IMG/VR virus record: IMGVR_UViG_3300009551_000005
Location: 1 to 64,000 of that record
DNA: 64,000 nt
Source: a virus
Reading direction: 5' to 3' (one strand)
In this document: positions 6,929 to 63,784 of the stretch, one piece after another
How positions within the stretch are numbered: the first letter of the stretch is position 1
How the letters are laid out: each line of letters begins with the position of its first letter
The notes under the pieces: model-generated
Seen by the model: only the letters and a program-made list of their open reading frames with translations
Told to the model about the DNA's origin: nothing
The model's database searches: none
Made by a program: the position numbers and the translations under genes

Positions 6929-7305
6929 GGCTCAGGCTCGTCATCAAGCAAGCTGCGCGCGAGCTCTCCATCGGTCCGGGAGACTTCTTGGAGCTCGCCG
7001 GACCGCACGACGACTGCATCGACGCGCGCGTGTGGCTCGCCACGCACGGTCGGTTCATGCGCGACCACGTCTTGCCCGAGCTCCTCGCGAACTTCGAGGG
7101 GAAGGACATTCGCAAGGAAGCGGTCCGCGCGGAGGTCTGCAAGTTCGTCGCGTGGCTCGTGAAGCGCTACGTGGGAGACGCCGCGTTCGTGACGTTCCCT
7201 ACGCCGGAGAAACCAGACAAGAAGTTCTTCGAGGAGCGCGAGCGTCAGCCAGTGCTCACGCCGTCCACGTGCCGGCCGGAGCCTCCTTTCACGCGCCGTC
7301 GGTGA
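6925..7305 (+). CDS. hypothetical protein
   Basis: GGAGG RBS; its TGA stop lies inside palindrome copy 2. Confidence 0.6.
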   Translation: MRLRLVIKQAARELSIGPGDFLELAGPHDDCIDARVWLATHGRFMRDHVLPELLANFEGKDIRKEAVRAEVCKFVAWLVKRYVGDAAFVTFPTPEKPDKKFFEERERQPVLTPSTCRPEPPFTRRR

Positions 7306-7319
7306 TCGATCACCGACGG
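7296..7319. repeat. 24-bp palindrome, copy 2
   Basis: Exact copy; TAGCCT follows at 7326. Confidence 0.97.
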
Positions 7320-11622: not shown

Positions 11623-12099
11623 ATGAGCCTCCGCATCGCCCTCCTCGCTCTCTTCCTCGTCGCCTGCTCGGGCGCGGGTGTCTCGTTCTCCCAAGACCAA
11701 CAGCCCGACGCGCCCACCCCGGACACCGGAGCTCCGCCGCCGGACGCGTTTACGGGCCATCCTGACGCTGGCGCGGGCCAAGATTCGGGACGCGTTGCCG
11801 ACGCCTCTCCGCCTCCCCCTGATGCCGTCGGTGATCGATCACCGACGGTGGACGCGGAGAGCCCGGAAACCGGAGACCCGGGGCAGGACGCCGGCGCGGA
11901 CGCGCCCGGTGAGGCGGAGGCCGGTCCGCCACCCACGTGCACGAGCGGGTGGGGCTACCAGTGCGCCGCGTGGGACATCAGGAACCCGGCGGCCACGGTG
12001 CCGTCTGAGGAGGGCTTCACGAGCGACTGCGCGCCCGAGTGGCTTCCCGATGCCGGCGCGGGCTGCATGCAGATCCCTGGCTACTGGTGCTGCCCGTGA
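11623..12099 (+). CDS. lipoprotein with DAG-rich linker and Cys-rich C-terminus
   Basis: MSLRIALLALFLVAC lipobox; contains palindrome copy 3 in frame. Confidence 0.75.
   Translation: MSLRIALLALFLVACSGAGVSFSQDQQPDAPTPDTGAPPPDAFTGHPDAGAGQDSGRVADASPPPPDAVGDRSPTVDAESPETGDPGQDAGADAPGEAEAGPPPTCTSGWGYQCAAWDIRNPAATVPSEEGFTSDCAPEWLPDAGAGCMQIPGYWCCP
11825..11848. repeat. 24-bp palindrome, copy 3 (intragenic)
   Basis: Exact copy, read as AVGDRSPT. Confidence 0.97.
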
Positions 12100-18190: not shown

Positions 18191-18802
18191 ATGGCGGACG
18201 ACAAGCACATCGTGGTGTGGGACCCCCTGGGGGAGTTCGAACAGGGCTCGCTCCTGACGGCCGAGGAGGCGAACCTCCTCCATCAGAACCACGGCGCGGT
18301 GGTCATGCCCACCGACGTGGGACTTCACCGCCGGAGCGGCGTCGGCGGCTTCGCTTTCCGCGCATGGGGGGCGGGTTTCCCGCTCGAGAGCACCTATCCG
18401 CGTCACGTCTGCCCGCTCGTCCTCTTCGGTGACGGAGAGCACGGCTACGTGCACTGGGCGGTACGCCTGGTGGCCGAAGAGGAGCTCTACGAGCAGGTGC
18501 GAGGGGGTCGGAAGCTCGAAGGCCAGATCCGCTTCGGCGGAGACTCTTCGCAGATCAATCACCTCCATCCACCTCTCGCGGCGACCGACACCGCGATTCA
18601 CGGTCACAAGCTCACCGCGTCGAGCATGCACCGTACGGGCGGGTGGATCGTGGGCGGAGTCATCCCCTATCAGCCCCGCGCCGGCGACGGCGGCGGGCAC
18701 TATCCCTTCAGCGTCTACGGGCGCATGGAGGGGCTCAAGGCCGCGTGGGCGGCGTGCACCAAGACCGGAGCCGTGCGCGGCGTGATGGGAGGCTGGGGAT
18801 GA
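18191..18802 (+). CDS. hypothetical protein
   Basis: GAGGAGG RBS; TACCGT upstream. Confidence 0.6.
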   Translation: MADDKHIVVWDPLGEFEQGSLLTAEEANLLHQNHGAVVMPTDVGLHRRSGVGGFAFRAWGAGFPLESTYPRHVCPLVLFGDGEHGYVHWAVRLVAEEELYEQVRGGRKLEGQIRFGGDSSQINHLHPPLAATDTAIHGHKLTASSMHRTGGWIVGGVIPYQPRAGDGGGHYPFSVYGRMEGLKAAWAACTKTGAVRGVMGGWG

Positions 18803-19311
18803 GGTTTCAGCAGGTATTCAGGCGCTCCAAGACCGTCACCACGAACCCGGCGCTCGGCGGTGACCACGCGCCCGACAACACCACCGGGAGACCCGGAAAC
18901 GGCGCGGCGACGAGCTCCAACGGGAATCTCAACAACTGGGACAACGTCCTCAACGCGCCGTTCGCCAATTCGAGCGGATGGCCGGTGCAGCGCATCGCCG
19001 TCGCGGTCCGTTTCGATCCGACGACGACAGGCACCGCGACGCTCACTGCCAACGGCTACATCTACGAGGAGCTCACGGGCACGTGGCACCTCATGAACAG
19101 CAGCCCGATCACGCTCACCGCCAACCAGCTCGCGTTCTTCGACGTGCCGGCTATCCCGCCGGCCATCCAGACGTCGCAGTCGGGGCAGATGGGCGCGCCG
19201 TCAGCGGGCAGCATCGCGTTCATGCTGGTCCTCACCGACACCGGTGGGGCCACCGCGAGCGGAAACGTCACCGTGGCCATGGCGCCCGACACCACGAGCA
19301 ACCCGCTGTGA
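18799..19311 (+). CDS. putative virion protein
   Basis: T/N/G-rich beta-type composition. Confidence 0.6.
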   Translation: MRFQQVFRRSKTVTTNPALGGDHAPDNTTGRPGNGAATSSNGNLNNWDNVLNAPFANSSGWPVQRIAVAVRFDPTTTGTATLTANGYIYEELTGTWHLMNSSPITLTANQLAFFDVPAIPPAIQTSQSGQMGAPSAGSIAFMLVLTDTGGATASGNVTVAMAPDTTSNPL

Positions 19312-19625
19312 GCCTCAGGAGCAAGGTCGCAGAGATGTTCAGGCGCGTCGGCAACGCCGCGCACACGCTCGCCGAGAGGATCTCGCCCTCGATGCAGTGG
19401 ATCGAAGACGAGCCCGAAAGGCCGGCGGACCCCGCATCGCTCGGGGAGCTCGCGCCCATCGTGGAGCTCTCTCCCAAGGCGCGTGAGATGGTCGAGGCGG
19501 GTCTTCACCCGCCTCCCCGCCCCAAGCCCGCCGTCGGTGATCGATCACCGACGGCGACCCCTGAACCCCCGGTGAGCTTCCCCAAGCCCGCTGCCGGCGC
19601 TCGCGTGCGTTCCTGGCGCGGGTAG
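19308..19625 (+). CDS. hypothetical protein
   Basis: GTGA-coupled; contains palindrome copy 4 in frame. Confidence 0.55.
   Translation: MSLRSKVAEMFRRVGNAAHTLAERISPSMQWIEDEPERPADPASLGELAPIVELSPKAREMVEAGLHPPPRPKPAVGDRSPTATPEPPVSFPKPAAGARVRSWRG
19531..19554. repeat. 24-bp palindrome, copy 4 (intragenic)
   Basis: Exact copy (28-bp extension), 80 bp upstream of the portal start. Confidence 0.97.
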
Positions 19626-19634
19626 CATCGTCCC

Positions 19635-21527
19635 GTGGCAACGATGGCGAACCTCCAGCCGGTCGGTCGCGACTACGGCAACGAAGGGACCTACGGCCCG
19701 GGCTCTACCTTCCAGGGTCGCCAGGTCCTCGACTCCGCGCGCTACCGCTCTCTCGCCTGGAAGCAGGCCTACTACGCGTGCACGCAGCACGATCACAAGA
19801 AGCACGACTTCGACGGTCGGCTCGTCCAAAAGATGGGCGGTGGAGCGTTCGGCGCGCCGCTCATGACGTTCGAGAAGAGCGCCTACTTCGTGCCGTTGCG
19901 CGAGCGCCGGCCGAGCTTTCCCGCGCGCATCGGGCGCGTGATCGTGAATGCGTTCACGGGGCTCGTCTTCGGTGAGGGGCGCTTCCCTGAGATCATGTGC
20001 CGCGGCGACGTCGAGACGCAGGACTTCGCGCGCACGCTCTCGCGCGTCGCGCACTTGCCCTCGCGCATGATTCTCGCCGCCACGCGCGCTGGCGCGACGG
20101 GCACGGTCTGCCTCTCCTGGTGCTACCGGAATGGGCGCCCCAAGGTCACGGTGCACAACGCGCGGAACATCTACGTCCACAAGTGGGCGCACCGAGACGA
20201 GCACATCGTGAAGCACGCCTCGGAGATCTGGACGTTCCAGCAGGACGACCCAGACCCGAAGAGACCCGGGCAGCTCGTCACGAACACGTACTGGCGTCGT
20301 CGCGACTGGACGATGAACGCCGACATCATGTTCAAACCCGTTCTGCACGAGGAGGGGAAGGATCCCAACGAGAGCTGGGAGCCGGACCTTGGGCGCTCCG
20401 TCATCCACAACGACGGCGTGTGCCATCTCGAGTGGGCTCAGAACCTTCCCACCGACCAGATCGATGGCGAGGCCGATTACGAGGGGCTCTACGAGCAGAT
20501 GGACGAGTACGACACGATCTGGTCGGTCGTGACGCGCTCCGCGAAGCTCAATCTCGACCCGACGCTGAAGTTGAAGATGGACCCCGCGATGCTCGGCAAG
20601 AAAGCCGTGGCGAAGGGATCGGACAACTCGCTCATCGTGGGCGTTGACGGTGACGCGGAGTACCTCGAGCTCGAGGGCCAGAGCGTGAAGGCGGGTATCG
20701 ATCTCCTCGGCTCCATGCGGCGCGAGATCCTCGAGCAGGCGCAGTGCATCGTGCCCGACCCGGACACGGTGGCCGCGCAGGGAGTCAGCTCCGTCGCCAT
20801 CCGTGCGATGTACGAGCCGATGCTCAACAAGGCGAGCATCAAGAGGGAGCAGCTCCACCAGCCCATCGAGAGGATCCTCGACGGTCTCATCACCTCCGCG
20901 CGCGCGAAGAGCGGCAAGAAAGTGTTCGTCTTCGTCGACGGCGTGGAGGTCGAGGACGTCTTCGAGGTGAAGCTCCCCAAGCGCGCGGAGGAGGAAGACG
21001 AAGTCGACGAGGACGGCAATCCCACCGGCGAGAAGAAGGTGAACATGGTCGAGCGCACGCCCGGTGAGGGCGAGGAGATTGAGCTCGAGCCGCGTCCCTA
21101 CTTCACGCTCACGCCGGCGGATCTCGGAGCCATCGCCACGTACCTCTCCACGTCGCTCGGCGGCACCACCGCGTTCATGGCGGTGGAGACCGCGGCTGGC
21201 GAGATGGCCAAGGCCATCGGCAAAGACGGCAAAGAGGAGTGGCGCAAGATTCAGCACGCCGGCGCGCAGGCGCAGCAGAAGCAGCAGGACATGTTCGACG
21301 ACCACGACGCGGATGCGGGCGGGAAGGTCGAGCACGAGATGCAGCTTCCCGGCGGTGCGAAGGTCAAGACGTCCAAGGCTCCCAAGCCCCCGCCGCCCAA
21401 GCCCCCGCTCCCCGGCATGGGCGGACCGCCGAAGCCCGGCGCGCCTCCAGGCATGCCCGGCGCGAAGGAGATGGGCGGCGACGAAAGCGCAGGAGCGAAG
21501 CCCCCGGCGGGCAAGCCTCCGAAGTGA
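19635..21527 (+). CDS. portal protein
   Basis: Size, position before the minor head gene, SPP1-like pattern (IVNAFTGLVFG, DAEYLE, SSVAIRAMYEPM), Pro/Lys-rich tail. Confidence 0.8.
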   Translation: MATMANLQPVGRDYGNEGTYGPGSTFQGRQVLDSARYRSLAWKQAYYACTQHDHKKHDFDGRLVQKMGGGAFGAPLMTFEKSAYFVPLRERRPSFPARIGRVIVNAFTGLVFGEGRFPEIMCRGDVETQDFARTLSRVAHLPSRMILAATRAGATGTVCLSWCYRNGRPKVTVHNARNIYVHKWAHRDEHIVKHASEIWTFQQDDPDPKRPGQLVTNTYWRRRDWTMNADIMFKPVLHEEGKDPNESWEPDLGRSVIHNDGVCHLEWAQNLPTDQIDGEADYEGLYEQMDEYDTIWSVVTRSAKLNLDPTLKLKMDPAMLGKKAVAKGSDNSLIVGVDGDAEYLELEGQSVKAGIDLLGSMRREILEQAQCIVPDPDTVAAQGVSSVAIRAMYEPMLNKASIKREQLHQPIERILDGLITSARAKSGKKVFVFVDGVEVEDVFEVKLPKRAEEEDEVDEDGNPTGEKKVNMVERTPGEGEEIELEPRPYFTLTPADLGAIATYLSTSLGGTTAFMAVETAAGEMAKAIGKDGKEEWRKIQHAGAQAQQKQQDMFDDHDADAGGKVEHEMQLPGGAKVKTSKAPKPPPPKPPLPGMGGPPKPGAPPGMPGAKEMGGDESAGAKPPAGKPPK

Positions 21528-29873: not shown

Positions 29874-29897
29874 CCGTCGGTGATCGATCACCGACGG
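29874..29897. repeat. 24-bp palindrome, copy 5
   Basis: Exact copy followed by TGG-TAGCCT-N7-ATG. Confidence 0.97.
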
Positions 29898-34224: not shown

Positions 34225-35160
34225 ATGTCGGAAGAGAACAAGGACAAGGGCACGCCGGCGGCTGCCGGTGCAGAGGGCGCGAAGGGCACGGAGGCCAAGC
34301 CGCCGAAGGAAGAAGCCGTCGCGAAGCCGGAAGCCAAGGGCGATGCGAAGCCGGAAGCCAAGGGCGAGAAGACGGCTGGCAAGTCCAAGTCGGAGGAAGT
34401 CCAGGCCACCGCGAAGCGCTACAAGCTCGAGGATGATGACGACGAGATCCCGGAAGATGCGGACCTTCTCGACCTCACGCCGCGCGGTCTGAAGAATCGC
34501 CTCACGCGTGCCAAGAACAGCGTTCTCAAGGAGCGCTTCGGCACGACCGACGTCGACTCCATCGTCGCGAAGCTGAAGAAGCTCGAGGAGTTCGAGGAGA
34601 AGGAAGCGAAGGCCAAGAAGGAGAAGATGGACAAGGAGGAGCGCCTCGCTGCCGAGAAGGCAGAAGCCGAGGACCGCGCCGCCAAGGCCGAAGCACGCGC
34701 GAAGGCAGTCGAGGAGGAGCGCGCCGTCGAGAAGGAAGGCACGCGGCTGAAGGGTCTCTGCGAGGACCAGATCAAGCCGAAGTATTGGCGCCACGTGAAG
34801 GCGGACCTCGCCGAGTGGATCCTCAACGGCGAAGATGGTGAGCCGCGCTCCCCCAAGGAGATCCGCGCGCTCAAGGACAAGGACATCAAGAAGTGGCTCG
34901 GGAACTACTTGAAGGACAACCCCGAGTTCTCCGCCGGCGCGGCCGCTGACGCAGCGAAGGCCGCCAAGGAGGAGAAGGACAAGAAGAAGGGTCTGAACAC
35001 CGGCGCGGACAACGATGACGAGAAGACGGGCACCGACGGTGACACCGACCCGTCCGTCGACCCGGCCACCGGCAAGACGCTGAAGCCCGGACGTCCCAAC
35101 TCGATGACGAAGGCGGAGGCGCAAGCCTTCCTCCGCAAGAAGGGCATCGAGCTCCCCTAG
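34225..35160 (+). CDS. capsid scaffolding protein
   Basis: K/E/A-rich coiled coil preceding the major capsid gene. Confidence 0.75.
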   Translation: MSEENKDKGTPAAAGAEGAKGTEAKPPKEEAVAKPEAKGDAKPEAKGEKTAGKSKSEEVQATAKRYKLEDDDDEIPEDADLLDLTPRGLKNRLTRAKNSVLKERFGTTDVDSIVAKLKKLEEFEEKEAKAKKEKMDKEERLAAEKAEAEDRAAKAEARAKAVEEERAVEKEGTRLKGLCEDQIKPKYWRHVKADLAEWILNGEDGEPRSPKEIRALKDKDIKKWLGNYLKDNPEFSAGAAADAAKAAKEEKDKKKGLNTGADNDDEKTGTDGDTDPSVDPATGKTLKPGRPNSMTKAEAQAFLRKKGIELP

Positions 35161-35675
35161 CCCGTCTTGTTGCGCGCGAGCCTCTTCTGCTCGCGCTTCT
35201 CGTCCGGCGCGATGGCGAGGAGGATTGTCGTGTGGTCCCTCCCCACGAGCCTCCCGATCTGAGGGTAGCTCAAACCCTTCGCCCGAAGTCTCTTCCAAAA
35301 CTCGACGCGCGCCTCGACGAGCTCCGTCGTCCGCACCCTGCCGAACAGCTCTCGCTCATTCACGAAGTGCTTGGTGCAGACGTCTTCGATGTCAGCGCCG
35401 AACCCGCGGTGACGAGCTGCCTGCGAGAGCCCTTCCTCCACGTTCAGGCGTGCCGCGCGCGCGGTTCCCCACGCGACCCGCGCGCGCATCTTGCCGCCGT
35501 CGAACGTGAGCTTGGCCTCCGCGACGGTCTTGCCGTCGGACACCTGGACTTCATCACCCGGCACGACGTGGTTCACGAGCATCGTCGCGCGTGACCCTTC
35601 GGAGTCGAGGAGCACGAGCCCGTCTTCTTGGCGTTCGAAGTCGACGAAGATGATGACCGGACCCTTCAGGACCAT
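35157..35675 (-). CDS. protein with DnaA C-terminal-type HTH domain
   Basis: EAR...GLSYPQIGRLVGRDHTTILLA; GCGGCAT-N9-ATG. Confidence 0.75.
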   Translation of the reverse strand: MVLKGPVIIFVDFERQEDGLVLLDSEGSRATMLVNHVVPGDEVQVSDGKTVAEAKLTFDGGKMRARVAWGTARAARLNVEEGLSQAARHRGFGADIEDVCTKHFVNERELFGRVRTTELVEARVEFWKRLRAKGLSYPQIGRLVGRDHTTILLAIAPDEKREQKRLARNKTG

Positions 35676-35880
35676 GGCCGCCGGATGCCGCTGGACGCGA
35701 CCGCTTTCGGCTCGTAGATTCCGATCGTCACCAAGCAACAAGCCGAACGAACCACCCACCACGAGAGTACGCGCCTCGGTCAAGAGCGCGGTGAAAGGGC
35801 GGAAGTGAGGTCGAAGGCGTGGAGGCCGACGTGCGTGCCCCCGTGAGCGGCGCGCGAGGCAACCGACCGGAGATCTACCA

Positions 35881-37281
35881 ATGACCCTCGTCCTGGGCGT
35901 ACCGCCCGCAGTTCTCGAGCTCCAGCAGCAGGGACTTCTGGAGCGCGCGTTTCACGATGCTCTCTTCCCCAAGCTCCTCTACCGCCAGGAGTGCAGCGTC
36001 GAGGATTGGCCGGCGAACACGGGCACCACGGTGCTCATGTCCAAGCCCGGGCTCCTGCCGCCCATCACGACGCCCACGACGCCGGGCAGCGACCCGCCGG
36101 ACCAGACGCTCAACTACGAGCAGTGGTTCGCGACGCTCGAGCAGTACAGCGGATCTCTGCCGACGCACATCCCGACGGCGGTGACGGCGAACGCGAACCT
36201 CTTCCTCCGCAACATCCAGCAGCTCGGGATGCAGGCGGGGCAGAGCGTGAACCGCCTCGCGCGCAACAGGATGTTCAAGGACTACCTGGGCGCTCAGACC
36301 AACGCGCTGACGACCATCGGCTCGAGCGACACCACGATCCGCGTCGCTGCGCTGAACGGGTTCCGCTACGTGGTCATCCCCGGCACGAACGTCGCGCCGC
36401 AGCCGGTCTCTTCGTCCTACCCGATGCAGGCGACCGTGGGCACCGCGCCGACCACGGCGACGGTCTCCATCGTGGGCGTCGTGCCCGACAACGCGAGCGA
36501 CCCGGATGGTCCGGGCACTCTCCAGCTCGCGGCCGCCGTCGGCACCGCGTTCGCGACGACGCGCACGCCGGTCATCGGTGCGTACGCGCCCCTTGTCGTG
36601 AACAGCGCGGGTGGCACGAACATCGACAACATCACCGCCGGCGACACGCTGACGCTCCAGCAGGTCATCAACGCCGTCGCGCTCCTCAGGAACGCGAACG
36701 TGATGCCCCACGAGGACGGCTACTACCACGCGCACATCGGCGCGCTGTCGGTGCCGCAGCTCTACGCGGACCCCGTGTTCCAGCGCCTGAACCAGTCGCT
36801 CCCGAACGGGGACATCTACCAGACGGGCTTCGTCGACACGATCAACGGCATCAAGTTCTTCTTGAACACGGAGTCGCCGCTGTACGCGTCGAACAACGTG
36901 GGCAAGCTCACCGCGACCGCGTCTTCGGGCGTGTACGCGGCGGACATCGGGTCGGAGATCGTGAACGGCAACGGCGTCCAGATCGGCATGGTGCTCATCA
37001 CCGGCCGGGGTATCACCTGGGAGAAGCGCCTCGACGAGTCGAACTACGTCACCGAGGCCGGCACCACCGGCAAGATCGGCCAGTTCGATGTCGTGAACAA
37101 CGGCATCCAGGTCATCACCGAGGGCATCCGCCTCATCATCCGCGCGCCGCTCGACAAGCTTCAGCAGGTCGTGTCGGTCTCGTGGAGCATCTCTACGAGC
37201 TTCTCGAGCCAGACCGACTACCTCGCGCAGAGCGGCCCCCAGGCCTACAAGCGCGGGATCGTCCTCCGCCACGCGGCGTAA
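35881..37281 (+). CDS. major capsid protein
   Basis: 466 aa after the scaffold; LERAFHDALFP, IIRAPLDKLQQVVSVSW; GGAG RBS. Confidence 0.85.
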   Translation: MTLVLGVPPAVLELQQQGLLERAFHDALFPKLLYRQECSVEDWPANTGTTVLMSKPGLLPPITTPTTPGSDPPDQTLNYEQWFATLEQYSGSLPTHIPTAVTANANLFLRNIQQLGMQAGQSVNRLARNRMFKDYLGAQTNALTTIGSSDTTIRVAALNGFRYVVIPGTNVAPQPVSSSYPMQATVGTAPTTATVSIVGVVPDNASDPDGPGTLQLAAAVGTAFATTRTPVIGAYAPLVVNSAGGTNIDNITAGDTLTLQQVINAVALLRNANVMPHEDGYYHAHIGALSVPQLYADPVFQRLNQSLPNGDIYQTGFVDTINGIKFFLNTESPLYASNNVGKLTATASSGVYAADIGSEIVNGNGVQIGMVLITGRGITWEKRLDESNYVTEAGTTGKIGQFDVVNNGIQVITEGIRLIIRAPLDKLQQVVSVSWSISTSFSSQTDYLAQSGPQAYKRGIVLRHAA

Positions 37282-37468
37282 TCCGCTTCCCTTCGCCGAG
37301 CGCCTCGGAGATCACCTGCGAGGCCTCGGCGAACGAGTCGCATACGCAGGGCACTTCGCCCGGAACGTACGCGAGCCATCCCTCTCCTTCGCCCTCCGGC
37401 CCGACGATTCCGAACACCTTGGACACCTCGAAGAGGTGGTCGAAGTCGACATCAACGGACACCTTCAT
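37193..37468 (-). CDS. small hypothetical protein
   Basis: GCGGCAT-N11-ATG; 3' end overlaps the capsid gene. Confidence 0.5.
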   Translation of the reverse strand: MKVSVDVDFDHLFEVSKVFGIVGPEGEGEGWLAYVPGEVPCVCDSFAEASQVISEALGEGKRITPRGGGRSRACRPGGRSARGSRSGSRSS

Positions 37469-37485
37469 GGCGTCGTTCGATGCCG

Positions 37486-37509
37486 CCGTCGGTGATCGAT
37501 CACAGACGG
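37486..37509. repeat. 24-bp palindrome, copy 6 (one mismatch)
   Basis: CCGTCGGTGATCGATCACAGACGG between divergent motifs. Confidence 0.95.
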
Positions 37510-37541
37510 TGCTAGCCTCCACCGGAGACGGAGGAATCCCC

Positions 37542-37922
37542 ATGGCGAGGCACGTACCCAACAAGAACAGCGAAACCGCGGTCCGCGCGCCCATCCAGGG
37601 CGGCACGCTCGGTGTCCCCGCGCAGCCCCAGGCCGCGCCGCTTCCAGGCCCGTTCGTTCATCGGCAGCAGGGTCCCAGGCCGCCGGAGAAGAAGCCGCGG
37701 CGCTGGGAGGTGATGGACAACCCGAGGAAGGGCTCCGACGGTGATTGGCGCGTCCTCTTGAACCACGCGGTGGTCATCCTGAAGAGCGGGAGGATCGTGA
37801 CGGCGCTCAACTACAACCTCGATGAGCTCCGCGCACAGGGCGTGAAGCTGAAGCCCCTCGACCCGCCGGACGAGGAGGAGAACAAGCCCGAAGCGGACGG
37901 CGAAGAAGCCGCGGCGGAGTAG
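37542..37922 (+). CDS. hypothetical protein (head module)
   Basis: GGAGG RBS. Confidence 0.65.
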   Translation: MARHVPNKNSETAVRAPIQGGTLGVPAQPQAAPLPGPFVHRQQGPRPPEKKPRRWEVMDNPRKGSDGDWRVLLNHAVVILKSGRIVTALNYNLDELRAQGVKLKPLDPPDEEENKPEADGEEAAAE

Positions 37923-45627: not shown

Positions 45628-46350
45628 ATGGAAGGCATCAAGAGGAGCTTCGGTCCCAAGATCGACAGCAGCGAGCCGTCGGCGGAGGAACGTGCGGCAG
45701 TGGGCGCTGTGGGCGGTCATCCCGCGTTTCGCGACGCACCCCCGCCTGGCGTGCCCAAGGTGAAGACGCGCGCTCCTGAGCAGGAGATCGACGAGGAGGA
45801 CGAATCGGAGCTCGTCGAAGAGGCAGGAGCTCCGCCGGACGACGACAGCCCGGGCAACGCCGCGCAGGACGACGATGACGATCCCAAGCCGAAGCTCAAC
45901 GCGGCGGCTGATGACGTCCCCTACCCGGACTTCGAGGAAGAGGACAACTGGCCGGCGTGGGCGGTCCTTCCCAAGCAGGTGAAGCCGAAGCCCGGCACGC
46001 GCATGGAGTGCTTCAAGTTCGAGGCGGAGCACACCGAGGACCAGCAGGAGCACTGGTGCATCGTCTGGCCGCTCAAGGACAAGGAGCAGGCCAACGCGTA
46101 CAAGAACACCGCCGGCACCGCGGAGCGCGCCATCGCGGAGCTTGCGAAGATGGGTCTGCGCGTCGTCGACGGGCTGCCCGCGCGCTGGGACGTCACGCCG
46201 GCGACGTCGGGCAGTATCATGGGTTTCTGGAACGTCATCGGCGCGAAGGGGCGCCAGATGCTCCAGGAGTGGTACGCGAAGGCTCACGCGTTCTCCAAGG
46301 AGGAGCGGAAGGTTTTTTTCGCGCGCTGCTACGGTTCCAAGAGGGCGTAG
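45628..46350 (+). CDS. tail assembly chaperone (G-like)
   Basis: Between tube and tape measure; slippery site near its end. Confidence 0.7.
   Translation: MEGIKRSFGPKIDSSEPSAEERAAVGAVGGHPAFRDAPPPGVPKVKTRAPEQEIDEEDESELVEEAGAPPDDDSPGNAAQDDDDDPKPKLNAAADDVPYPDFEEEDNWPAWAVLPKQVKPKPGTRMECFKFEAEHTEDQQEHWCIVWPLKDKEQANAYKNTAGTAERAIAELAKMGLRVVDGLPARWDVTPATSGSIMGFWNVIGAKGRQMLQEWYAKAHAFSKEERKVFFARCYGSKRA
46314..46320 (+). other. -1 programmed frameshift site (T TTT TTC) giving a GT-like extension to 46613
   Basis: T7 run in a GC-rich gene; the -1 frame is open and coding-like to 46613. Confidence 0.75.
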
Positions 46351-46705
46351 CAGCGGGGGACGACATCGAGGACGCGCTGGAGGCGCTGGGCGGGGACAGG
46401 ATCTTGCTCGCCTACGCCTTCGCGCAGTCCTGCGACCCGGACGACATGCTGAGGAAGATGAAGCGTCAGCACATCTACCTGTGTCGGTACATGCACGTGT
46501 CGCTCGAGCGCGTCGAGGACATGGATGCCGAGGAGATCCGCGACTACATGGAGGAGCTCTCCGAGGTCATCAAGCAGGAGACTCCCACGCCGGCGGGGCC
46601 CGGCTCGCAGTGAGCTCCCAGCCCGCCGAAGGGGTGCACCTCTCCGGCGGGCCAGTTCCGGCATCCGCCCCGTGGGCGGTCTGACCGACAGCTCTCCTGA
46701 TGCCG

Positions 46706-46729
46706 CCGTCGGTGATCGATCACCGACTG
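46706..46729. repeat. 24-bp palindrome, copy 7 (one mismatch)
   Basis: ...CACCGACTG, then TGG-TAGCGT-N6-ATG of the tape measure gene. Confidence 0.95.
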
Positions 46730-46744
46730 TGGTAGCGTCACCAC

Positions 46745-48682
46745 ATGGCAGGCAGCGGCCCGTCGGCAGAAGTCAGGATCTCGCTTCAGGTCGAAGAGGC
46801 CAAGGCGCACGCCGCCATCGCGCGCACGAGCGCGATGTTCGGGAAGATCGCGCAGTCGGCGCAGCGCGCGCTGCACGGCGCCATGGAGGCGGTGTCGGGA
46901 TTCGCTTCCACGATGTTCAAGGCCGCAGGGATCGCCGGGCTCGTCGGCGGCCTGGCAGGAGGTTTCGGCCTCGTCGAAGGCGCCATGGAGGCGGCGCGCG
47001 CGGCGGAGAGTCAGAAGAAGGCCATCGCTCAGACATTGGCCATCACGGACCAGAGCGGCGCGTCTTTCGCGCAGCTCAAGGTGAAGGCCGCCGGGCTCCG
47101 CGAGGAGTTCGTCGAGATGGGGATGAAGGCCGGAGTCATGGGCTCCGAGGTGGCCTCCATCTTCCAGGAGATCGCGGAGAGAAGCGGGCGGCCAACGTCT
47201 GCGGTGAAGGAGCTCACCGAGAAGATCGTGCAGGCCGGGCGCGTGGTCGGTGACACCGAGACCATCACGCGGGGCATGCGCATGCTCGAGATGGGCATGA
47301 CGGGTGCGCGCAACCCGATCGTGGCGCTCATCCGGTCCACCGGTGTCCTCAAGGGTTCCATCCACGACGTCTCGCACGCGCTCTCGAAGATGAAGCCGGA
47401 GGACCAGCTCCGCGCCGGTGAGGAGGCCATCAACAAGCTCGCCGCCAAGGCGAAGGATCTGCCGCTCACGTTCGGGCAGATGGCCAATCAGCTCAAGCAG
47501 ATGAAAGAGAACGTCCTCGAGAACATCGGGGGTCCTCTCATCAGCGGGATCATGCCGGCGCTCATGGAGGTCCAGAAGTGGATCGCTGGTCACCGGCGCG
47601 AGATTGAGGCCTACGCGAAGGCGCTCGGGCAGAAGGTCGGCGAGTGGGTGAAGGCGGCTGCCAAGATGATGGGCGAGGCCTTCAAGTGGATCGACACGCA
47701 CTCGAAGGAGATCTCCGACGCCATTCAGGGCGCGGCGTCGGCGCTCAAGTCCGTCTTCAGCTTCATCATCGCGCACAAGGAGGTCATCGCCGGGATGTTC
47801 GCGGCGAAGGCGCTCGGCGGGTTGGTGGGAATGGGTGGTAAGGCCGGAGCCGCCGCCGCGGGTATCGGCATCTACAAGGAGATTCTCGAGGGCGTGAAGG
47901 ATGCGGTCGACAAGGCCTTCGTCCACAAGGAGACGAAGCACGAGGCGGCTGGCGCGAACATGAACGCTGGCATGGACGCCATCCAGCAGATGTACAAGGC
48001 CAAGAACCTCCAGGGGCTCCTCGACTACCAGAAGCAGTTCGTCGAGTACGCGGAGCAGTGGGACGGCGAGAAGGGCAAGAAGGCCGCCACGAAGTTCATC
48101 GACAAGTACATCAACGCGCTGTGGGACGAGCAGTCTCGCCAGTCCGACCGGATGCACGATCTCGCGATGAAAGCCGACGACGGCCGGCGGACCATCCAGG
48201 ACACGCTCATCGAGATCGGCAAGGCGAAGGACTCCTACGGGAAAAACTTCATGGGACCGACACCGGACTTCGAGGGGCAGTCGAACGAGCAGGGCGCTTA
48301 CATCGCGAAGATCTACAACGACGCCATCACAGCGCAGGACCAGGGCATGCAGATGCAGGCCGCGATCCTCCTTCGCTCGAGCGACATGGCGCGCCAGGCG
48401 CTCATCAACTCCGGCGTGGAGATCTCCGAGGGCATCGACAAGCTCGCGGCCATGGTCGGAGGCTCTGCGGGCGAAGCGCTCAAGAAGCTCTTCACGGATC
48501 GCCAGGCGTCGCTCAACAAGCCGACGATGACGCAGAACTTCAGCGGCGGCCAAACGTTCCACATCACGCAGGACTTCAGGAAGGCGGACCCCGACAACGT
48601 GGCGATCGTCACGCGGAAGGACACCTTCAAGCGGGCGTTCGCGCGCGGCTTCGCGAAGACCGCCATCTTCCAGGGCAGCTAG
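46745..48682 (+). CDS. tape measure protein
   Basis: 645-aa Ala-rich helical protein after the chaperone. Confidence 0.8.
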   Translation: MAGSGPSAEVRISLQVEEAKAHAAIARTSAMFGKIAQSAQRALHGAMEAVSGFASTMFKAAGIAGLVGGLAGGFGLVEGAMEAARAAESQKKAIAQTLAITDQSGASFAQLKVKAAGLREEFVEMGMKAGVMGSEVASIFQEIAERSGRPTSAVKELTEKIVQAGRVVGDTETITRGMRMLEMGMTGARNPIVALIRSTGVLKGSIHDVSHALSKMKPEDQLRAGEEAINKLAAKAKDLPLTFGQMANQLKQMKENVLENIGGPLISGIMPALMEVQKWIAGHRREIEAYAKALGQKVGEWVKAAAKMMGEAFKWIDTHSKEISDAIQGAASALKSVFSFIIAHKEVIAGMFAAKALGGLVGMGGKAGAAAAGIGIYKEILEGVKDAVDKAFVHKETKHEAAGANMNAGMDAIQQMYKAKNLQGLLDYQKQFVEYAEQWDGEKGKKAATKFIDKYINALWDEQSRQSDRMHDLAMKADDGRRTIQDTLIEIGKAKDSYGKNFMGPTPDFEGQSNEQGAYIAKIYNDAITAQDQGMQMQAAILLRSSDMARQALINSGVEISEGIDKLAAMVGGSAGEALKKLFTDRQASLNKPTMTQNFSGGQTFHITQDFRKADPDNVAIVTRKDTFKRAFARGFAKTAIFQGS

Positions 48683-52630: not shown

Positions 52631-52654
52631 CCGTCGGTGATCGATCACCGACGG
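52631..52654. repeat. 24-bp palindrome, copy 8
   Basis: Exact copy, then TGC-TAGCGT-N7-ATG. Confidence 0.97.
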
Positions 52655-57028: not shown

Positions 57029-58138
57029 GTGGACCTCGCGACGCGCCTCGACCTCTTTCAGACCGGCCGGCAGTTCTTTCGCCAGCGCACGACGAGCATC
57101 GACCCCGCCCAGGTCGACATCCTCGGATCGGATGCGAACCTCATCGTGGGTGGCCAGTCCGTCATGGCCGCGAAGGTCGTGCAGCAGGTGGCCTACCAGA
57201 GCGGTCGGCACTTCGTGGCCGGGTGCTTCGATGAAGATCTCGACCGCTACGCGTACGACAAGTGCTTCGGGCTCCTGAGGAAGGGCGCATCACCGGCGGT
57301 CTCGCAAGTGCGCTTCTTCCGCGCCGGCGGTGCATCAGGAAGCATCCCCGCGGGCACCGTTCTTCGCACCGTCGGCGGGCAGGTGGAGCACGTGATGGTC
57401 ACGCCGGCGGTCTTCTCTTCCGGCGGTCTCTCCGCGACGTGTTTCACGCGCGCGACGCAGGCGGGCAAGAGCTCGCAGACCGGCGCGAACACCATCCGCA
57501 CGTTCGCCAACCCGACGGCCATCTTCGACCAGACGATCCAGCTCACGAACGACGTGGCCACCGCTGGCGGTGAAGACCGCGAGGACGACGACACGTTCAA
57601 GGGACGCATCATCCAGTTCCCGCAGAGCCTCGCGAAGGGGACGAACCCCGCCATCCAGTTCGGCGCGCTCACCGTGCCCGGAGTCGTGAGCGCGCTGGCA
57701 CAAGATGCGGTCGACCCGTCGGGTAACAGCGCACGCGTCGTGAACCTCTTCATCGCGGACTCGACGGGCGTCGCCAACGCGGCTCTCGTCGCCAACGTGG
57801 TTTCCGTCCTGCCCGAGTACAAGGCCGGAGGCATCGCGGTCGTCCTCTTCACGAGCATCCCGCAGATCCTGTCGATCGTGACCGCGCTCCAGTTCTCGGG
57901 GAACGTGGACACGGTCTCGCTGACCGCCGCGGTGTGGAACGCGCTCGTGGAGTTCGTGAACACGCTGCCCGTCAACGCGCCGCTCTACAGGAGCGACCTT
58001 CTTGCGGTCGTGCGCAGGTTCAAGCCGCTGGGCGTGGTGCCGTGGGGTGGGAGCATCGTGTCGCCGGCGGGGGACGTCTTCCCCACGCTCGGTCAGACCA
58101 TCAGGACGAGCCTCGCGTACGTCAGCGCTGCTTCCTAG
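57029..58138 (+). CDS. baseplate J-like protein
   Basis: IPAGTVL, GGEDREDDDTFKGRI, ALTVPGV. Confidence 0.88.
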   Translation: MDLATRLDLFQTGRQFFRQRTTSIDPAQVDILGSDANLIVGGQSVMAAKVVQQVAYQSGRHFVAGCFDEDLDRYAYDKCFGLLRKGASPAVSQVRFFRAGGASGSIPAGTVLRTVGGQVEHVMVTPAVFSSGGLSATCFTRATQAGKSSQTGANTIRTFANPTAIFDQTIQLTNDVATAGGEDREDDDTFKGRIIQFPQSLAKGTNPAIQFGALTVPGVVSALAQDAVDPSGNSARVVNLFIADSTGVANAALVANVVSVLPEYKAGGIAVVLFTSIPQILSIVTALQFSGNVDTVSLTAAVWNALVEFVNTLPVNAPLYRSDLLAVVRRFKPLGVVPWGGSIVSPAGDVFPTLGQTIRTSLAYVSAAS

Positions 58139-58865
58139 ACTTCGTCGCAACTGGCGGAGGAAGAAGCATCGGGATGATCCCGATGGGACGCTCGAGCGTC
58201 TTCGTGATGAGGTGCATGACCTGCGCTCCACCACCGCGGACGATGTGCCGGATGGACGACCTCGCGTTCCTCAAGACATCAGCCACGCGGCAGAGTCCCT
58301 CCCACGCCTCATCTGAATATGGAATCACCGCGACATCGTTCCAATCGCCGTGGTACTCGCGCGCACCATCGCCGACTGCTCGAAGCCTGCGCATCTCCTC
58401 AGCGTCTTTCTCCCAGCCCTTCAAGCTTTGCTCGAAGTCCTTGGAGTGTGAACGCGTGAACCACCGGTCTTGCCGCTTGTTGCTGCCGTCGTACCTCCTG
58501 TTGACCTTCGTGATCCCGGCGGTGTCGTTTCCGCGGACCAACGCTCGCTCGAGCCGTTCGAACGACAGCTTCACGTGGACTTCGACGTCGTTCATCTTTT
58601 CCCTGTCGAGGGGTTCGAACGCGTCGGGTTTCTCCCACTTGGAAAGGTCCGAACCGACCGTGATGACTGGCTCCCACACGTATCGGATCACCTTCTCGAG
58701 CTCCGCCTGAGCCTTTTCCTTCACCTCGTTGATGGTGTCCGCGCGCAACTCTTCGTCGCCGACCTTCGCGAAGAAGTTTTTCCTGTCACGGTCGAAGAGA
58801 ATGTCGACCCATCCGTGTTTCGTTTGGAGCTTGTCGACGACGTAGGGTTTGAGTGCGCGGCCCAT
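58122..58865 (-). CDS. hypothetical protein
   Basis: TAATG-coupled to the upstream minus-strand gene; GAGGAG RBS. Confidence 0.65.
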   Translation of the reverse strand: MGRALKPYVVDKLQTKHGWVDILFDRDRKNFFAKVGDEELRADTINEVKEKAQAELEKVIRYVWEPVITVGSDLSKWEKPDAFEPLDREKMNDVEVHVKLSFERLERALVRGNDTAGITKVNRRYDGSNKRQDRWFTRSHSKDFEQSLKGWEKDAEEMRRLRAVGDGAREYHGDWNDVAVIPYSDEAWEGLCRVADVLRNARSSIRHIVRGGGAQVMHLITKTLERPIGIIPMLLPPPVATKSRKQR

Positions 58866-59431
58866 TAGCGACTCCTCGTGAAGCACGCTTCGCGGAACAT
58901 CGCGAGAAGGACTGCGGCGGTGGATTGGGCGAGCGGTTCGAGCTTCTCCGTCGGCTTCTTCAACCCGGGGTGCTGATAGGTCCAAGGTTCGGCAGTGACC
59001 ATGAGAGTCAGAACCGGCGAAGTGACCGGGTTCACCCAATGCCATCCGTTCGGTTCCGTCATCTCGTAGCTCGAACCCTCGGGCAGACGGAGCACCATCA
59101 CAGTTTCCGCCGGGTCGCTGGAGTCACGTGAAGTGCCAACGCCCATCTCGTAGACGCCCGAAGCCTGGATGATCTTCACTGCGCTCGGCCAGGGGTGCGG
59201 GTGGTAGAGCGGCGTGCCACACGGATGGATGCGGTGGAGGTAGAGGCGAAGCGAACCGTGTTTCGGATGCTTCACGCTTCGCCAGAGCCGTTCGACGCGC
59301 GGCTTGTCGTAGTCCACGTCCAGCGACGTCCAGTCCGAGGGATCGTCGCAGATGAACGGGAGCGCGCTTTCGAAGTCTTCAAGCGCTGCGAGGAGCTCCC
59401 CTTTCCTGTATGTCCTTTTCTCTTCAGCCAT
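58865..59431 (-). CDS. cupin-like protein
   Basis: RLYLHRI...HPHPW...E...WH.V...LTLMVT; GCGGCAT-N9-ATG. Confidence 0.65.
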   Translation of the reverse strand: MAEEKRTYRKGELLAALEDFESALPFICDDPSDWTSLDVDYDKPRVERLWRSVKHPKHGSLRLYLHRIHPCGTPLYHPHPWPSAVKIIQASGVYEMGVGTSRDSSDPAETVMVLRLPEGSSYEMTEPNGWHWVNPVTSPVLTLMVTAEPWTYQHPGLKKPTEKLEPLAQSTAAVLLAMFREACFTRSR

Positions 59432-59446
59432 GGCGCCGCGATGCCG

Positions 59447-59470
59447 CCGTCGGTGATCGATCACCGACGG
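59447..59470. repeat. 24-bp palindrome, copy 9
   Basis: Exact copy between divergent motifs. Confidence 0.97.
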
Positions 59471-59489
59471 CGCTGCTAGCCTCCTGCGC

Positions 59490-61397
59490 ATGGCCAACGG
59501 CGTCGGCGCTCTCACTCCCCAGGACCTCCTCGCTGCGTGGCAGTCGGGGGCCGATGAGGGCTACACGCAGCCGCTCATCGCTGCCGGTGACGGCCAAGGC
59601 CTCGAGGTCTTCTCGCAGGCGGCCGTGCAGCTCGCGCGCGTCAGCCAGTGCTCGGACAACACGTTCGGCTCGTTCTACATCCTGCCCTGGAGCGGTCAGA
59701 CCGCGCCGTCGGCAGGGGGAGCGCAGCAGGCGACGGTGACCATCACCGTCACGAGAAACCTCAGGCTCGACGTTCCGCTCGTTCTCCCCGCCGGCGCGTT
59801 CGTCGAGGAAGTGGCGTTCGACTGGGGTCCCACCGGCGCTGTGCCGGTGCAGACCGGGCGACGTTTCCAGCTCCTTTCGAACGTCGTGTTCTTCAGCGGT
59901 GACAGCGGCCCTTACAACGTGATCGCGCAGGCTGAGAAACCGGGGTGGGGCTACAACAACCCGCAACCCGGCTCCATCTCACTCGTCGACCAGCCGGGCA
60001 GCGGCTACGAGAACACGCTCGCATCGGTGACGTTTGACCCGGGCTCCGGTCCACCGACTCCGCGCTCGCTCTCCGCGCTCCTCATCTCCGCGCCGCAGCC
60101 GGACATGTTCGTGCTCGAACACGTGGGCCAGTACGTCGCGTTCACCGCCGGCGCGAACGTCGGGCAGGTGGCCAGGATCTCCGCGGTACAGCCCCCGGTG
60201 CCGCCGACATCGGGAACCACCGCGGTCCTCGACTCCATTCTCTGTTTCGAGTGCACGACGTTCTCTGGCCCCTTCTTCGCCGGCGAGCTCGCGACCTTCA
60301 AGAGCGGCGGCGTGACGGTGGGTTCGGGCACTGTGCTCGCCAGCGCAGTGAACCCCGCAAGCGGAAACCTCCGCACCGTCGTGCATCTCTCCTTCGACAG
60401 CGGCTTTGCCGCCGGTGTCACCTGCACCGGCGTATCCTCCGCGCTCTCGGCGACGCTGACGCGTTTCCTCTACCGCCCGAGCTTCACCGCAGAGGCGCCG
60501 TCGGGTGGCGCGGGAGGAGCCTCGTGGAAGGTCCTCGACTGGGCGGCAGATCTCGGGGTCGAGGTGACCAACGCCGCGCAGCCCTCCGGCGGAAGGCTCG
60601 GAGTGCTCGACGAGCTCGGGAGAGAGCGCGGAGTGCCGCGCGCGGGAGGCGAAGGAGACATCCCCTATGCGAAGCGCGTCCACGCTGCGCCGGACAAGGG
60701 GAGCACGAACGCGCTGAAGCGCGCGTTGAACAAGCTCCTCGGCCCGGGCTCGCAGTGGTGCCTTCGTGAGGTGGGCACCGCGCTCCTCCCCGGCATGTTC
60801 TACGACGGCGGGCTCGAGACTCCTTCGTCGACGCCCGGGCGTGGAGAGAACGACTGCTACGACGTCGACACTGTGAGCTGGAGCGGCGGCGTCTACGTCG
60901 GCACGTTCAAGTTTCAGGAGCCGTGTGTCTACGTTGACGCGAGCGGAAACCAGCGGATCTTCGGGTACGTCGGATCGACCGTGGGAGGGCTCACGATGAT
61001 CCGCCGGCAGACGACGCAGGGCGCGTTTCCCGCAACGTCTTCGCCGACCGACAGGGTCAAAGGTCTCATCTCCGGCGCGACCTATCAGCCGCTCGCGAAC
61101 CCGGTTCAGAGTCCGAGTTTCACCGCGCGGCGCTTCCGCATGGTCATGAACTACGCGGAGTTTCGCGCGTTCTTTCTCGTGGGCCTGCCGCCATCGAACG
61201 CCGGCGAGTTCGGTTTCGCGTACGACTCGGGCACCTCCAACGCGTATGACCTGACAGGCACCGTCTACCCGACCTTCTACGACGGCTACCCCGTGGACTT
61301 CGCGGAGGAGTGCATGGCCGTATGGAACACGATGAACGCCACGAAGGATGGCGGCGTCGGGTTCGACCTGTACCTGGAACCCGGCCCCTGCTCCTGA
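59490..61397 (+). CDS. baseplate wedge/fibre-attachment protein
   Basis: LDELGRERGVPR..GEGD..Y.KR motif. Confidence 0.7.
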   Translation: MANGVGALTPQDLLAAWQSGADEGYTQPLIAAGDGQGLEVFSQAAVQLARVSQCSDNTFGSFYILPWSGQTAPSAGGAQQATVTITVTRNLRLDVPLVLPAGAFVEEVAFDWGPTGAVPVQTGRRFQLLSNVVFFSGDSGPYNVIAQAEKPGWGYNNPQPGSISLVDQPGSGYENTLASVTFDPGSGPPTPRSLSALLISAPQPDMFVLEHVGQYVAFTAGANVGQVARISAVQPPVPPTSGTTAVLDSILCFECTTFSGPFFAGELATFKSGGVTVGSGTVLASAVNPASGNLRTVVHLSFDSGFAAGVTCTGVSSALSATLTRFLYRPSFTAEAPSGGAGGASWKVLDWAADLGVEVTNAAQPSGGRLGVLDELGRERGVPRAGGEGDIPYAKRVHAAPDKGSTNALKRALNKLLGPGSQWCLREVGTALLPGMFYDGGLETPSSTPGRGENDCYDVDTVSWSGGVYVGTFKFQEPCVYVDASGNQRIFGYVGSTVGGLTMIRRQTTQGAFPATSSPTDRVKGLISGATYQPLANPVQSPSFTARRFRMVMNYAEFRAFFLVGLPPSNAGEFGFAYDSGTSNAYDLTGTVYPTFYDGYPVDFAEECMAVWNTMNATKDGGVGFDLYLEPGPCS

Positions 61398-63760: not shown

Positions 63761-63784
63761 CCGTCGGTGATCGATCACCGACGG
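63761..63784. repeat. 24-bp palindrome, copy 10
   Basis: Exact copy; supplies the TGA of small ORF 63636..63770; TAGGCT follows at 63791. Confidence 0.97.

Follow-up and report, generated by a model that had tools for sequence, protein, structure and literature searches.

The DNA analysed here (the window) is a 64,000-base stretch, positions 1 to 64,000 of the 100,493-bp virus record IMGVR_UViG_3300009551_000005, a phage genome with 123-bp terminal repeats and a G+C content of about 66%. At positions 37466-37544, beyond the gene for the major head protein, a 24-bp palindrome lies between two promoter-like motifs that point away from each other, a GCGGCAT motif directed leftward and a TAGCCT box directed rightward (Table 1). 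The same succession of ATGCCG(CCG), palindrome and TGS-TAGSST (S being C or G) is found at 37480-37518 (cassette 1), 59441-59482 (cassette 2) and 46700-46738 (cassette 3), and it agrees with the architecture that a preliminary description of this DNA had reported at 37466, 59429 and 46700. That description took the arrangement for a lambda OR-type switch, repeated along the genome, in which one bound protein would control two programmes reciprocally. Our analysis indicates that a protein site common to the divergent promoters is likely, and that a lambda-like reciprocal switch is unlikely.

Copies and symmetry of the palindrome

The palindrome, CCGTCGGTGATCGATCACCGACGG, is perfect over 24 bp, with the half-sites CCGTCGGTGATC and GATCACCGACGG and a symmetry that is unbroken through the centre. 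The genome holds 19 copies, 14 of them perfect over all 24 bp. Within the window, the 18-bp core of the palindrome occurs 10 times against an expectation of 0.06, while the 30-mer formed by ATGCCGCCG and the palindrome occurs four times, compared with 0.00 in 100 shuffles. The fourth of these 30-mers (4816-4845) is inverted, and no TANNNT or TAGSST box is present on its opposite side.

A megablast search of 36-40 kb against GenBank phages found no close relative, and the exact 24-mer had no match in IMG/VR. Relatives were gathered by profile searches, a single-protein locus search with the portal protein having given none. The comparison set consists of 12 complete relatives (13 complete family genomes with the present phage) and three complete outgroup phages, whose portal proteins are 27-29% identical. 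More than 200 metagenomic homologues of the portal protein (19635-21527) share 40-54% identity with it, many of them on contigs of 90-105 kb.

Each of the 12 complete relatives has one palindrome family of its own, different in sequence, present in 12-30 copies and perfectly dyad-symmetric with no spacer; a private perfect palindrome family is thus found in 13 of 13 complete family genomes, and more variants were seen in further relatives via their primase loci. In all three outgroup phages we found neither a palindrome family nor the protein with a ParB-like DNA-binding domain (genome 75695-77128) that is considered below as the candidate binder. The copies are also placed more evenly than chance would have it, with a coefficient of variation of their spacing of 0.36-0.60 in 12 of the 13 genomes as opposed to about 0.92 for random placement. 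A different site architecture occurs inside the family in the relative L166 (IMGVR_UViG_3300046323_000673), where tandem pairs of a 12-bp palindrome, ATCCAATTGGAT, 14 bp apart (five pairs in 18.7 kb), replace the one long palindrome.

In the present genome, about half of all copies are situated within open reading frames (ORFs) away from promoters, and at least eight lie inside coding frames. In-frame copies are seen at genome positions 65943, 71857, 79562, 81817, 85759, 89235, 94672 and 98244, and at window position 7299. All truly intragenic copies are read in a single frame, V-G-D-R-S-P-T/K, mostly at the N- or C-termini of the proteins and in one case in PolB; the alternative open frame (PSVIDHRR) is never used by them.

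Since the symmetry passes through the centre in every phage, which the loop of a hairpin would not need, the palindrome appears to be a double-stranded DNA site of a symmetric (dimeric) protein and not an RNA hairpin. The bound protein that the preliminary description had postulated is therefore well in keeping with the sequences: perfect dyads in every relative point to a dimeric binder, and the cassette layout itself recurs in one relative, G001.

Promoter motifs, geometry and origin of the cassettes

The rightward motif belongs to class I, TG(C/G)TAG(C/G)(C/G)T, of which there are eight in the genome, six of them directly after a palindrome copy. More broadly, TAGSST followed by ATG or GTG at 6-7 nt (leaderless) or by a Shine-Dalgarno leader is found at about 16 gene starts, most of them in the 29-64 kb region. 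The -10 consensus of Streptomyces and mycobacteria is TAGRRT/TANNNT, and by its sequence we take class I to be an extended -10, -35-less promoter of the housekeeping-sigma type. A sigma-70 consensus scan gave no match at the cassette, as expected for promoters without a -35 element. The possibility that such an element is hidden in the palindrome was rejected on inspection, as no one hexamer fits both the 6-nt and the 9-nt spacings. Given that palindrome-free class I promoters exist (13784, 15246, 32506, 38558, 41508 and 50590), the palindrome is an add-on that is not needed for promoter function.

The leftward motif, class II, is GCGGCAT, which is present 33 times in the genome and leads 20 or more ORFs with a good coding signal via N9-11-ATG (occasionally 8-14). 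Its occurrences run from 4839 to 59447 and beyond (e.g. 6656, 9215, 10973 and 16947, and on the minus strand 22740, 35691, 40092 and 41496), and the genes it heads include the helicase, PolB, RecA and SbcD as well as all minus-strand accessory genes embedded in the structural arm. The headed ORFs have no conserved upstream element, no -35-like element and no Shine-Dalgarno sequence. GGCAT-N9-11-ATG is enriched in five relatives (G001, G003, G004, G008 and G013); class II is thus a family-wide motif, whereas the palindrome is phage-specific.

A small sigma factor is encoded by the phage at genome 74989-75650, with a region 2 above the Pfam cut-off and conservation in 11-13 relatives. Its operon (genome 72400-75650) is headed by a canonical TTGCGG-N16-TATAGT promoter in an AT-rich patch near 72.42 kb, behind which are encoded a DUF932 protein, a RecA-like paralogue, the small sigma and the protein with the ParB-like domain. 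This is probably an early operon read by the host, with which the phage's own programme of transcription begins. In our inference, class II would depend on the phage sigma and class I on the host sigma. The host may resemble an actinobacterium, to judge from the leaderless starts and TANNNT boxes in DNA of high G+C content. Neither an integrase nor an Xre-type repressor or HTH_3 domain was found anywhere in the genome, and the phage is apparently lytic.

As had been described, the palindrome at 37.5 and 59.4 kb fills the upstream space common to two divergent leaderless promoter-like signals. At cassette 1, the predicted starts are 37468 (leftward, at a leaderless ATG) and about 37525 (7 nt past TAGCCT), with the palindrome centre at about -29.5 and -28, respectively; at cassette 2 they are 59431 and 59490, with the centre at -27.5 and -31.5. 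A single site hence spans roughly -17 to -40 of both predicted promoters, and the divergent starts predicted from sequence are 57-59 bp apart. At six sites, the distance from the 24-mer to TGSTAGSST is 0 or 3 nt (0 nt for the copies at 37486 and 46706, 3 nt for that at 59447), and at 7296 a TAGCCT without TGS follows after 6 nt; at four sites, GCGGCAT overlaps the last palindrome base. Because the 0/3-nt abutment is held in spacers as long as 206 nt (52.6 kb) and 394 nt (46.7 kb), it is not a packing effect. Relatives likewise dock their own palindromes on leaderless -10 boxes and GGCAT motifs, and G001 has two divergent sites of class II, palindrome and class I built with a different palindrome.

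The bidirectional layout applies to two of the 19 palindromes, with one more site vestigial, and its history can be followed in the relatives. In five of them (G001, G004, G005, G006 and G008), their own palindrome lies 10-90 nt past the head gene and is followed by a promoter; in G008 the order is palindrome, TGCTAGGCT, leader and a protein beginning MARH, orthologous to the right side of cassette 1. The present genome has a 205-nt segment, comprising the 91-aa leftward ORF and GCGGCAT, between the head gene and this ancestral palindrome junction. At the position of cassette 2, 9 of 12 relatives have no palindrome, the orthologues of 57029-58138 and 59490-61397 being joined directly; here they are separated by a 1.35-kb block (58139-59489) that holds two leftward genes together with GCGGCAT, the palindrome and TAGCCT. 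G013 has an insertion of the same kind, which includes a palindrome of its own and CGGCAT-N10-ATG. By these comparisons, the leftward genes are lineage-specific insertions.

The genes that the preliminary description had assigned to the two sides fare unequally. A leftward minus-strand gene is well founded at 58865-59431, which has more than 240 homologues but no Pfam match, and weaker at 37193-37468, where the ORF has a G+C content at third codon positions (GC3) of 0.74 and an 89-nt overlap with the 3' end of the head gene. At 46.7 kb no credible leftward ORF exists: CAT is missing at N9-11, and the sole candidate, 46329-46664 on the minus strand, has G+C contents of 0.89/0.43/0.67 at the first, second and third codon positions. 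As for the rightward virion gene, the designation is borne out only for the neighbouring major head gene (phrog_1357); the genes at 46745 and 59490 are core structural-arm genes without a family match.

The 394 nt between two core genes at 46351-46744 hold no credible ORF, an orphan leftward GCGGCAT and a GC hairpin, CCGCCCCGTGGGCGG, at about 46648-46662; the stretch may be what is left of a former leftward gene, or it may be a small RNA. The copy at 19534 was also considered as a divergent cassette and rejected: a GC3-based call for 18643-19634 gives two minus-strand ORFs (18807-19508) that look spurious, while the plus-strand ORF 18643-19311 is far more protein-like, and the left arm is probably entirely plus-strand up to the portal gene. 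Another minus-strand accessory gene of the structural arm, 35157-35783, has a GCGGCAT motif at its head and encodes a helix-turn-helix (HTH) of the DnaA domain IV type (Bac_DnaA_C, E 9e-8, above the cut-off); it was found in only 1 of 12 relatives. The replication arm begins at 64 kb and includes helicase, DnaB, primase, PolB, two RecA-like proteins, SbcCD, ThyX and a Tet/JBP module. No tRNAs were found within the window.

Table 1. Cassette elements, flanking genes and further palindrome copies, in window coordinates
Feature	Position	Strand	Remarks
Large terminase gene	2714-4813
Inverted fourth copy	4816-4845	+	palindrome 4816-4839; GCGGCAT 4839-4845, rightward into ORF 4856-5155
Palindrome copy	7296-7319		6 nt upstream of TAGCCT, before dCMP deaminase gene
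Palindrome copy	11825-11848		truncated ATGCCG flank; no -10 adjoining
Palindrome copy	19531-19554		about 70 nt upstream of the portal gene's TAGCAT-N6-GTG
Palindrome copy	29874-29897		followed directly by TGGTAGCCT-N7-ATG
Core structural-arm genes	long block reaching 63 kb
Major head protein gene	35881-37281	+	phrog_1357, E 8e-13; core in 12/12 relatives; upstream of cassette 1
Leftward leaderless ORF, cassette 1	37193-37468	-	91 aa; weak coding signal; absent from relatives
CAT (minus-strand ATG), cassette 1	37466-37468		followed by N11 and ATGCCG 37480-37485
GCGGCAT (class II), cassette 1	37480-37486	-	overlaps last palindrome base; N11, then ATG 37468
Palindrome, cassette 1	37486-37509		CACAGACGG, 1 mismatch; centre 37497/98
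Extended -10 (class I), cassette 1	37510-37518	+	TGCTAGCCT (TGC-TAGCCT); adjoins palindrome; predicted transcription start about 37525
Rightward gene, cassette 1	37542-37922	+	126 aa, MARH...; 23-nt leader with GGAGG, ATG 37542
Cassette 3	46700-46738	+	ATGCCG 46700-46705; palindrome 46706-46729 (1 mismatch); TGGTAGCGT (TGG-TAGCGT); ATG 46745, leaderless
Rightward core gene, cassette 3	46745-48682	+	645 aa; Ala/Gly-rich, tape-measure-like by composition only
Palindrome copy	52631-52654		followed directly by TGCTAGCGT-N7-ATG
Second leftward accessory gene	58122-58868	-	248 aa; same inserted block as 58865-59431
Leftward accessory gene, cassette 2	58865-59431	-	188 aa; homologues at 40-56% identity; real gene
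CAT, cassette 2	59429-59431		followed by N9 and ATGCCG 59441-59446
GCGGCAT, cassette 2	59441-59447	-	N9, then ATG 59431
Palindrome, cassette 2	59447-59470		perfect; centre 59458/59
Extended -10, cassette 2	59474-59482	+	TGCTAGCCT (TGC-TAGCCT), 3 nt (CGC) past palindrome; ATG 59490 7 nt on, leaderless
Rightward core structural-arm gene, cassette 2	59490-61397	+	635 aa
Palindrome copy	63761-63784		3 nt ahead of TGCTAGGCT; leadered gene next

A proposed shared operator, its candidate binder and the alternatives

We consider it reasonably probable that 37466-37544 is a palindromic operator of a genome-wide phage regulator, shared by divergent promoters that would be occluded jointly, with a ParB/Noc-like protein as the candidate binder. 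Each palindrome copy would be the recognition site of a phage-private, symmetric (dimeric) DNA-binding protein. At its right edge, the extended -10 of the host housekeeping-sigma type would drive structural-arm genes, and at its left edge GCGGCAT would serve as the leaderless promoter of an inserted opposite-strand accessory gene, probably read by the phage sigma. The bound protein, covering -17 to -40 of both promoters, would shut both at once, i.e. co-repress them from a shared operator. Since one symmetric site is placed equally to both promoters, it offers no asymmetry from which opposite effects could follow, and joint occlusion is the simplest expectation. In addition, two polymerases would exclude each other, as starts only 57-59 bp apart cannot be occupied simultaneously. 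A reciprocal outcome could still arise through such promoter competition, which is not the mechanism that the preliminary description proposed.

The best candidate for the binder is the core protein encoded at genome 75695-77128, directly after the sigma gene and behind the sigma-70-type early promoter. Its N-terminus has a SAP-like helix pair (1jjr, E 2e-4) and a CxxC...CxxC zinc ribbon, and its C-terminus a beta domain; the central domain of its AlphaFold2 (AF2) model has a pLDDT of 85-94. Residues 201-344 of this model match ParB/Noc domains complexed with DNA, namely 4umk (Z 9.7, root-mean-square deviation 3.3, 116 residues aligned), 6t1f (Z 9.5) and 6y93, Noc with its binding site NBS (Z 9.3, 110/116 aligned). 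The ten best structural matches are all DNA-binding domains of ParB, Spo0J or Noc (Z 9.7-7.6), followed by an unrelated structure at Z 6.6 and later ones at 4.4 or below, and the Atlas structure of the protein matches HTH_ParB and Noc as well. The ParB/Srx CTPase domain (Pfam ParB_N), by comparison, was matched by 0 of 12 orthologues. As judged from these models, the protein has a ParB-type HTH domain, but it is not a canonical ParB. The family palindromes resemble parS (TGTTTCAC-GTGAAACA) and NBS (TATTTCCC-GGGAAATA) in design (PMC7383237), several having CACGTG or CCCGGG centres and A/T-run arms. It is fold, site design and co-occurrence that make this protein the strongest candidate.

In nearly all family members, the primase gene is followed by one or two genes for small paralogous HTH proteins (genome 71316-71897). 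The first of these proteins, HTH-A (71316-71567, Fis-like), was set aside as a specificity determinant, as its SRRQLYR-like helix is conserved across phages with different palindromes. The second, HTH-B (71580-71897, 105 aa), has a variable recognition helix and is RacA/MerR/Xis-like, with RacA as its best PDB match (E 3e-5). In front of its gene is GCGGCATAGGCT, a hybrid in which both motif classes overlap, and at the end of the gene there is a copy of the palindrome; orthologues of HTH-B do not have the 7-residue insert that the palindrome encodes. The ParB_N-like protein beside Tet_JBP (89811-90563) was likewise rejected as the binder, since it was found in 2 of 5 and then in 5 of 12 relatives, yet all have palindromes. 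The gene of the ParB_N-like protein overlaps the Tet/JBP dioxygenase gene (genome 89811-91440 and 95791-96846), with ThyX nearby; together they form a DNA base-modification module that is present in some relatives only (3-5 of 12).

Several observations count against the proposed operator and its binder. Across relatives, the palindrome centre and the -10 are anything from 9 to 44 nt apart. About half of the copies in the present genome are intragenic and remote from any promoter, so that the control of promoters must be only a part of what the sites do. A bound protein whose centre is near -30 could also be an activator, as at the T4 MotA box, and repression is the sign that we presume. The 91-aa leftward ORF at 37193-37468 is possibly not a real gene. 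The covariation between the DNA-binding domain of the candidate and the half-site is r 0.41 in 12 genomes (p 0.004, uncorrected for 35 tests) and falls to r 0.04-0.08 over 19 phages. Partial Mantel tests against primase are likewise null, and three phages with identical half-sites have DNA-binding domains that differ by about 70%. HTH-B, conserved after the primase gene, is a second candidate (Mantel r 0.16). Upstream of the candidate gene, 6 of about 20 phages have a palindrome within 300 nt, a frequency that in our judgement does not clearly exceed what gene starts show in general.

An alternative that we regard as unlikely, if worth serious thought, sees in the palindromes mainly marks of architecture or identity that a ParB/Noc-like protein would recognise, for use in genome organisation, anchoring, replication or packaging coupling, or the distinction of self DNA from co-infecting relatives; promoters would adjoin them only because both favour gene boundaries. 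The even spacing in 12 of 13 genomes fits this well, as do the private sequence of every phage, the ParB/Noc-type fold of the candidate and the fact that copies stay perfect inside essential genes such as that of PolB, in one frame and mostly at protein termini. The dispersed 17-bp dyad repeat of Cluster O phages is comparable, and a transcriptional role was judged unlikely there (PMC4351075). Nevertheless, the fixed 0/3 nt at six sites, the 6 nt at a seventh and the GCGGCAT overlap at four are far tighter than mere co-location would produce. Nor was a clear ParA partner found, the single match being a sub-threshold one to AAA_31 (83584-84012, 14.6 bits against a cut-off of 27), and the candidate is devoid of the CTPase domain that canonical ParB needs for spreading.

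The reciprocal switch of the preliminary description, whereby one protein or two competing holoenzymes would turn the GCGGCAT programme off as the TAGSST programme rises, or the reverse, appears improbable to us. Its merits are that the two motif classes differ and are probably read by different sigma factors, that occupancy of the closely placed starts is mutually exclusive, and that the layout recurs in G001. Furthermore, the palindrome centre is near -30, where some phage activators bind and take the place of the -35 element (MotA of T4 and the Lpa-dependent late promoters of P1). What it meets at the locus is a single symmetric site, equal to both promoters, with no graded operator array; the flanking genes have no DNA-binding family match and do not form a regulator pair. 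Class I promoters exist without a palindrome, and the spacing to the -10 is not constant, with a difference of 3 bp between sites here and of tens of bp in relatives. Neither is the switch repeated along the genome, as the two or three bidirectional sites among the 19 arose by insertion. With so few bidirectional copies and so many intragenic ones, the cassette is better seen as a local by-product of accessory-gene insertion beside a genome-wide site.

This insertion history could also be explained by a mobile or recombinogenic cassette of palindrome and promoter that shuffles accessory genes, the bidirectional layout being its scar, for which the PeSL cassettes of T4-type phages provide a model. 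We hold this to be more doubtful still. The block 58139-59489 is indeed missing at the junction in 9 of 12 relatives, G013 has its analogous insertion, the 37.5-kb leftward ORF was inserted between the head gene and the ancestral palindrome, and the repeats of Cluster O are known to recombine with one another (PMC4351075). However, the palindrome is at one end of the insert only, and perfect intragenic copies, even spacing and one private sequence per genome are left unexplained; such mobility is in any case compatible with a protein-binding site rather than an alternative to it.

Finally, that the palindrome acts as an RNA hairpin (a bidirectional terminator, an insulator or a processing site between transcription units) is very improbable: a GC-rich 10-bp stem is possible and many copies in relatives lie just past stop codons, but the cassette palindrome is situated between divergent starts and transcribed from neither, the copies do not show the hairpin with U-tract at a transcription-unit end and outside ORFs that marks intrinsic terminators (no T-run follows any of them), relatives have a separate canonical terminator beyond the palindrome after the head gene, the central bases are always self-complementary, which a loop does not need, and copies in PolB and other essential ORFs would terminate their own transcripts.

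A wider version of the shared-operator reading can be put forward tentatively. In it, a lineage of phages of about 90-100 kb would run a private "barcode" regulon, in which a CTPase-less ParB/Noc-like protein and a 20-26-bp palindrome co-diversify and gate both host-sigma late promoters and phage-sigma promoters; the evenly spaced sites would be forced even into essential ORFs in one frame, and the cassettes would be shared operators. Late transcription may in this way be tied to the copy number of the genome, or co-infecting relatives may be excluded, in which case a lytic phage would have a specificity akin to immunity. Should a CTPase-less ParB/Noc-like protein have the palindrome as its operator, the family would supply dozens of natural protein-site pairs with different specificities, on which the diversification of DNA-recognition codes could be studied and from which orthogonal repressor/operator parts could be drawn. 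The dispersed dyad repeats of actinophages such as those of Cluster O would gain a function as well, and a lytic phage would be seen to govern leaderless promoters of both kinds, host-sigma and phage-sigma, with a single genome-wide factor. The cassettes themselves teach that a switch-like layout can come from accessory genes that land, with their own promoters, beside an existing operator-promoter junction.

Comparison with known systems

By analogy, the system would work like the KorB-OB global regulon of plasmid RK2 or like Noc-NBS, and not like lambda OR. The resemblance to lambda OR, with its promoters PR and PRM, lies in divergent back-to-back promoters (here predicted) that share regulatory DNA. 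Lambda OR has three graded operators and two antagonistic repressors, encoded on either side, which serve the lysogeny decision; the present loci, by contrast, have neither an operator array nor a flanking regulator pair.

KorB of the IncP plasmid RK2 is a ParB-type HTH protein that represses from short perfect palindromes (OB) dispersed over a replicon of about 60-100 kb, and its sites are at, near or far from promoters (PMC11790492). Unlike KorB, the candidate described here has no ParB/Srx CTPase domain, so that no sliding clamp is expected, and it has a SAP-like domain and a zinc ribbon instead. The sites are longer (24 bp as opposed to 13 bp for OB), the replicon is apparently a lytic phage, and neither a KorA-like lock nor a clear ParA/IncC partner was found.

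The likeness to Noc-NBS and ParB-parS consists in the fold of the DNA-binding domain (Z 9.3-9.7) and in 16-bp palindromes designed like several of the family sites (PMC7383237). NBS sites are dispersed over the genome, and their specificity can be reprogrammed by few residues (PMC7383237). Noc and ParB differ in that they act in the maintenance of cellular chromosomes and depend on CTP, Noc being membrane-linked as well, whereas the phage sites differ from phage to phage and dock on promoters.

Among phages, Cluster A mycobacteriophages have stoperators, dozens of repressor sites beyond the main operator, and the specificities of site and repressor co-diversify (PMC6550527, PMC9283540). The many dispersed copies (19 here) are similar. 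Stoperators, however, are 13-bp, asymmetric, orientation-dependent and monomer-bound sites of temperate phages with an integration cassette (PMC6550527, PMC9283540), unlike the perfect 24-bp palindrome of a genome in which no integrase or Xre-type repressor was found.

Cluster O mycobacteriophages carry more than 30 invariant copies of a 17-bp dyad repeat, TGTTCGGNNNCCGAACA, in intergenic DNA, near the 5' ends of ORFs and inside ORFs, and recombination between the copies has been linked to insertions and deletions (PMC4351075). Both systems thus have tens of dyad-symmetric repeats over the intergenic and coding DNA of one phage genome. The Cluster O repeat differs in having a 3-bp asymmetric spacer, the same sequence in five known phages and only four sites near promoters, as opposed to the perfect symmetry, private sequence per phage and fixed-geometry docking to two promoter classes seen here. 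Taken together, these comparisons make the present finding, lineage-wide private palindromes docked on two promoter classes, a variant of the dispersed-operator systems.

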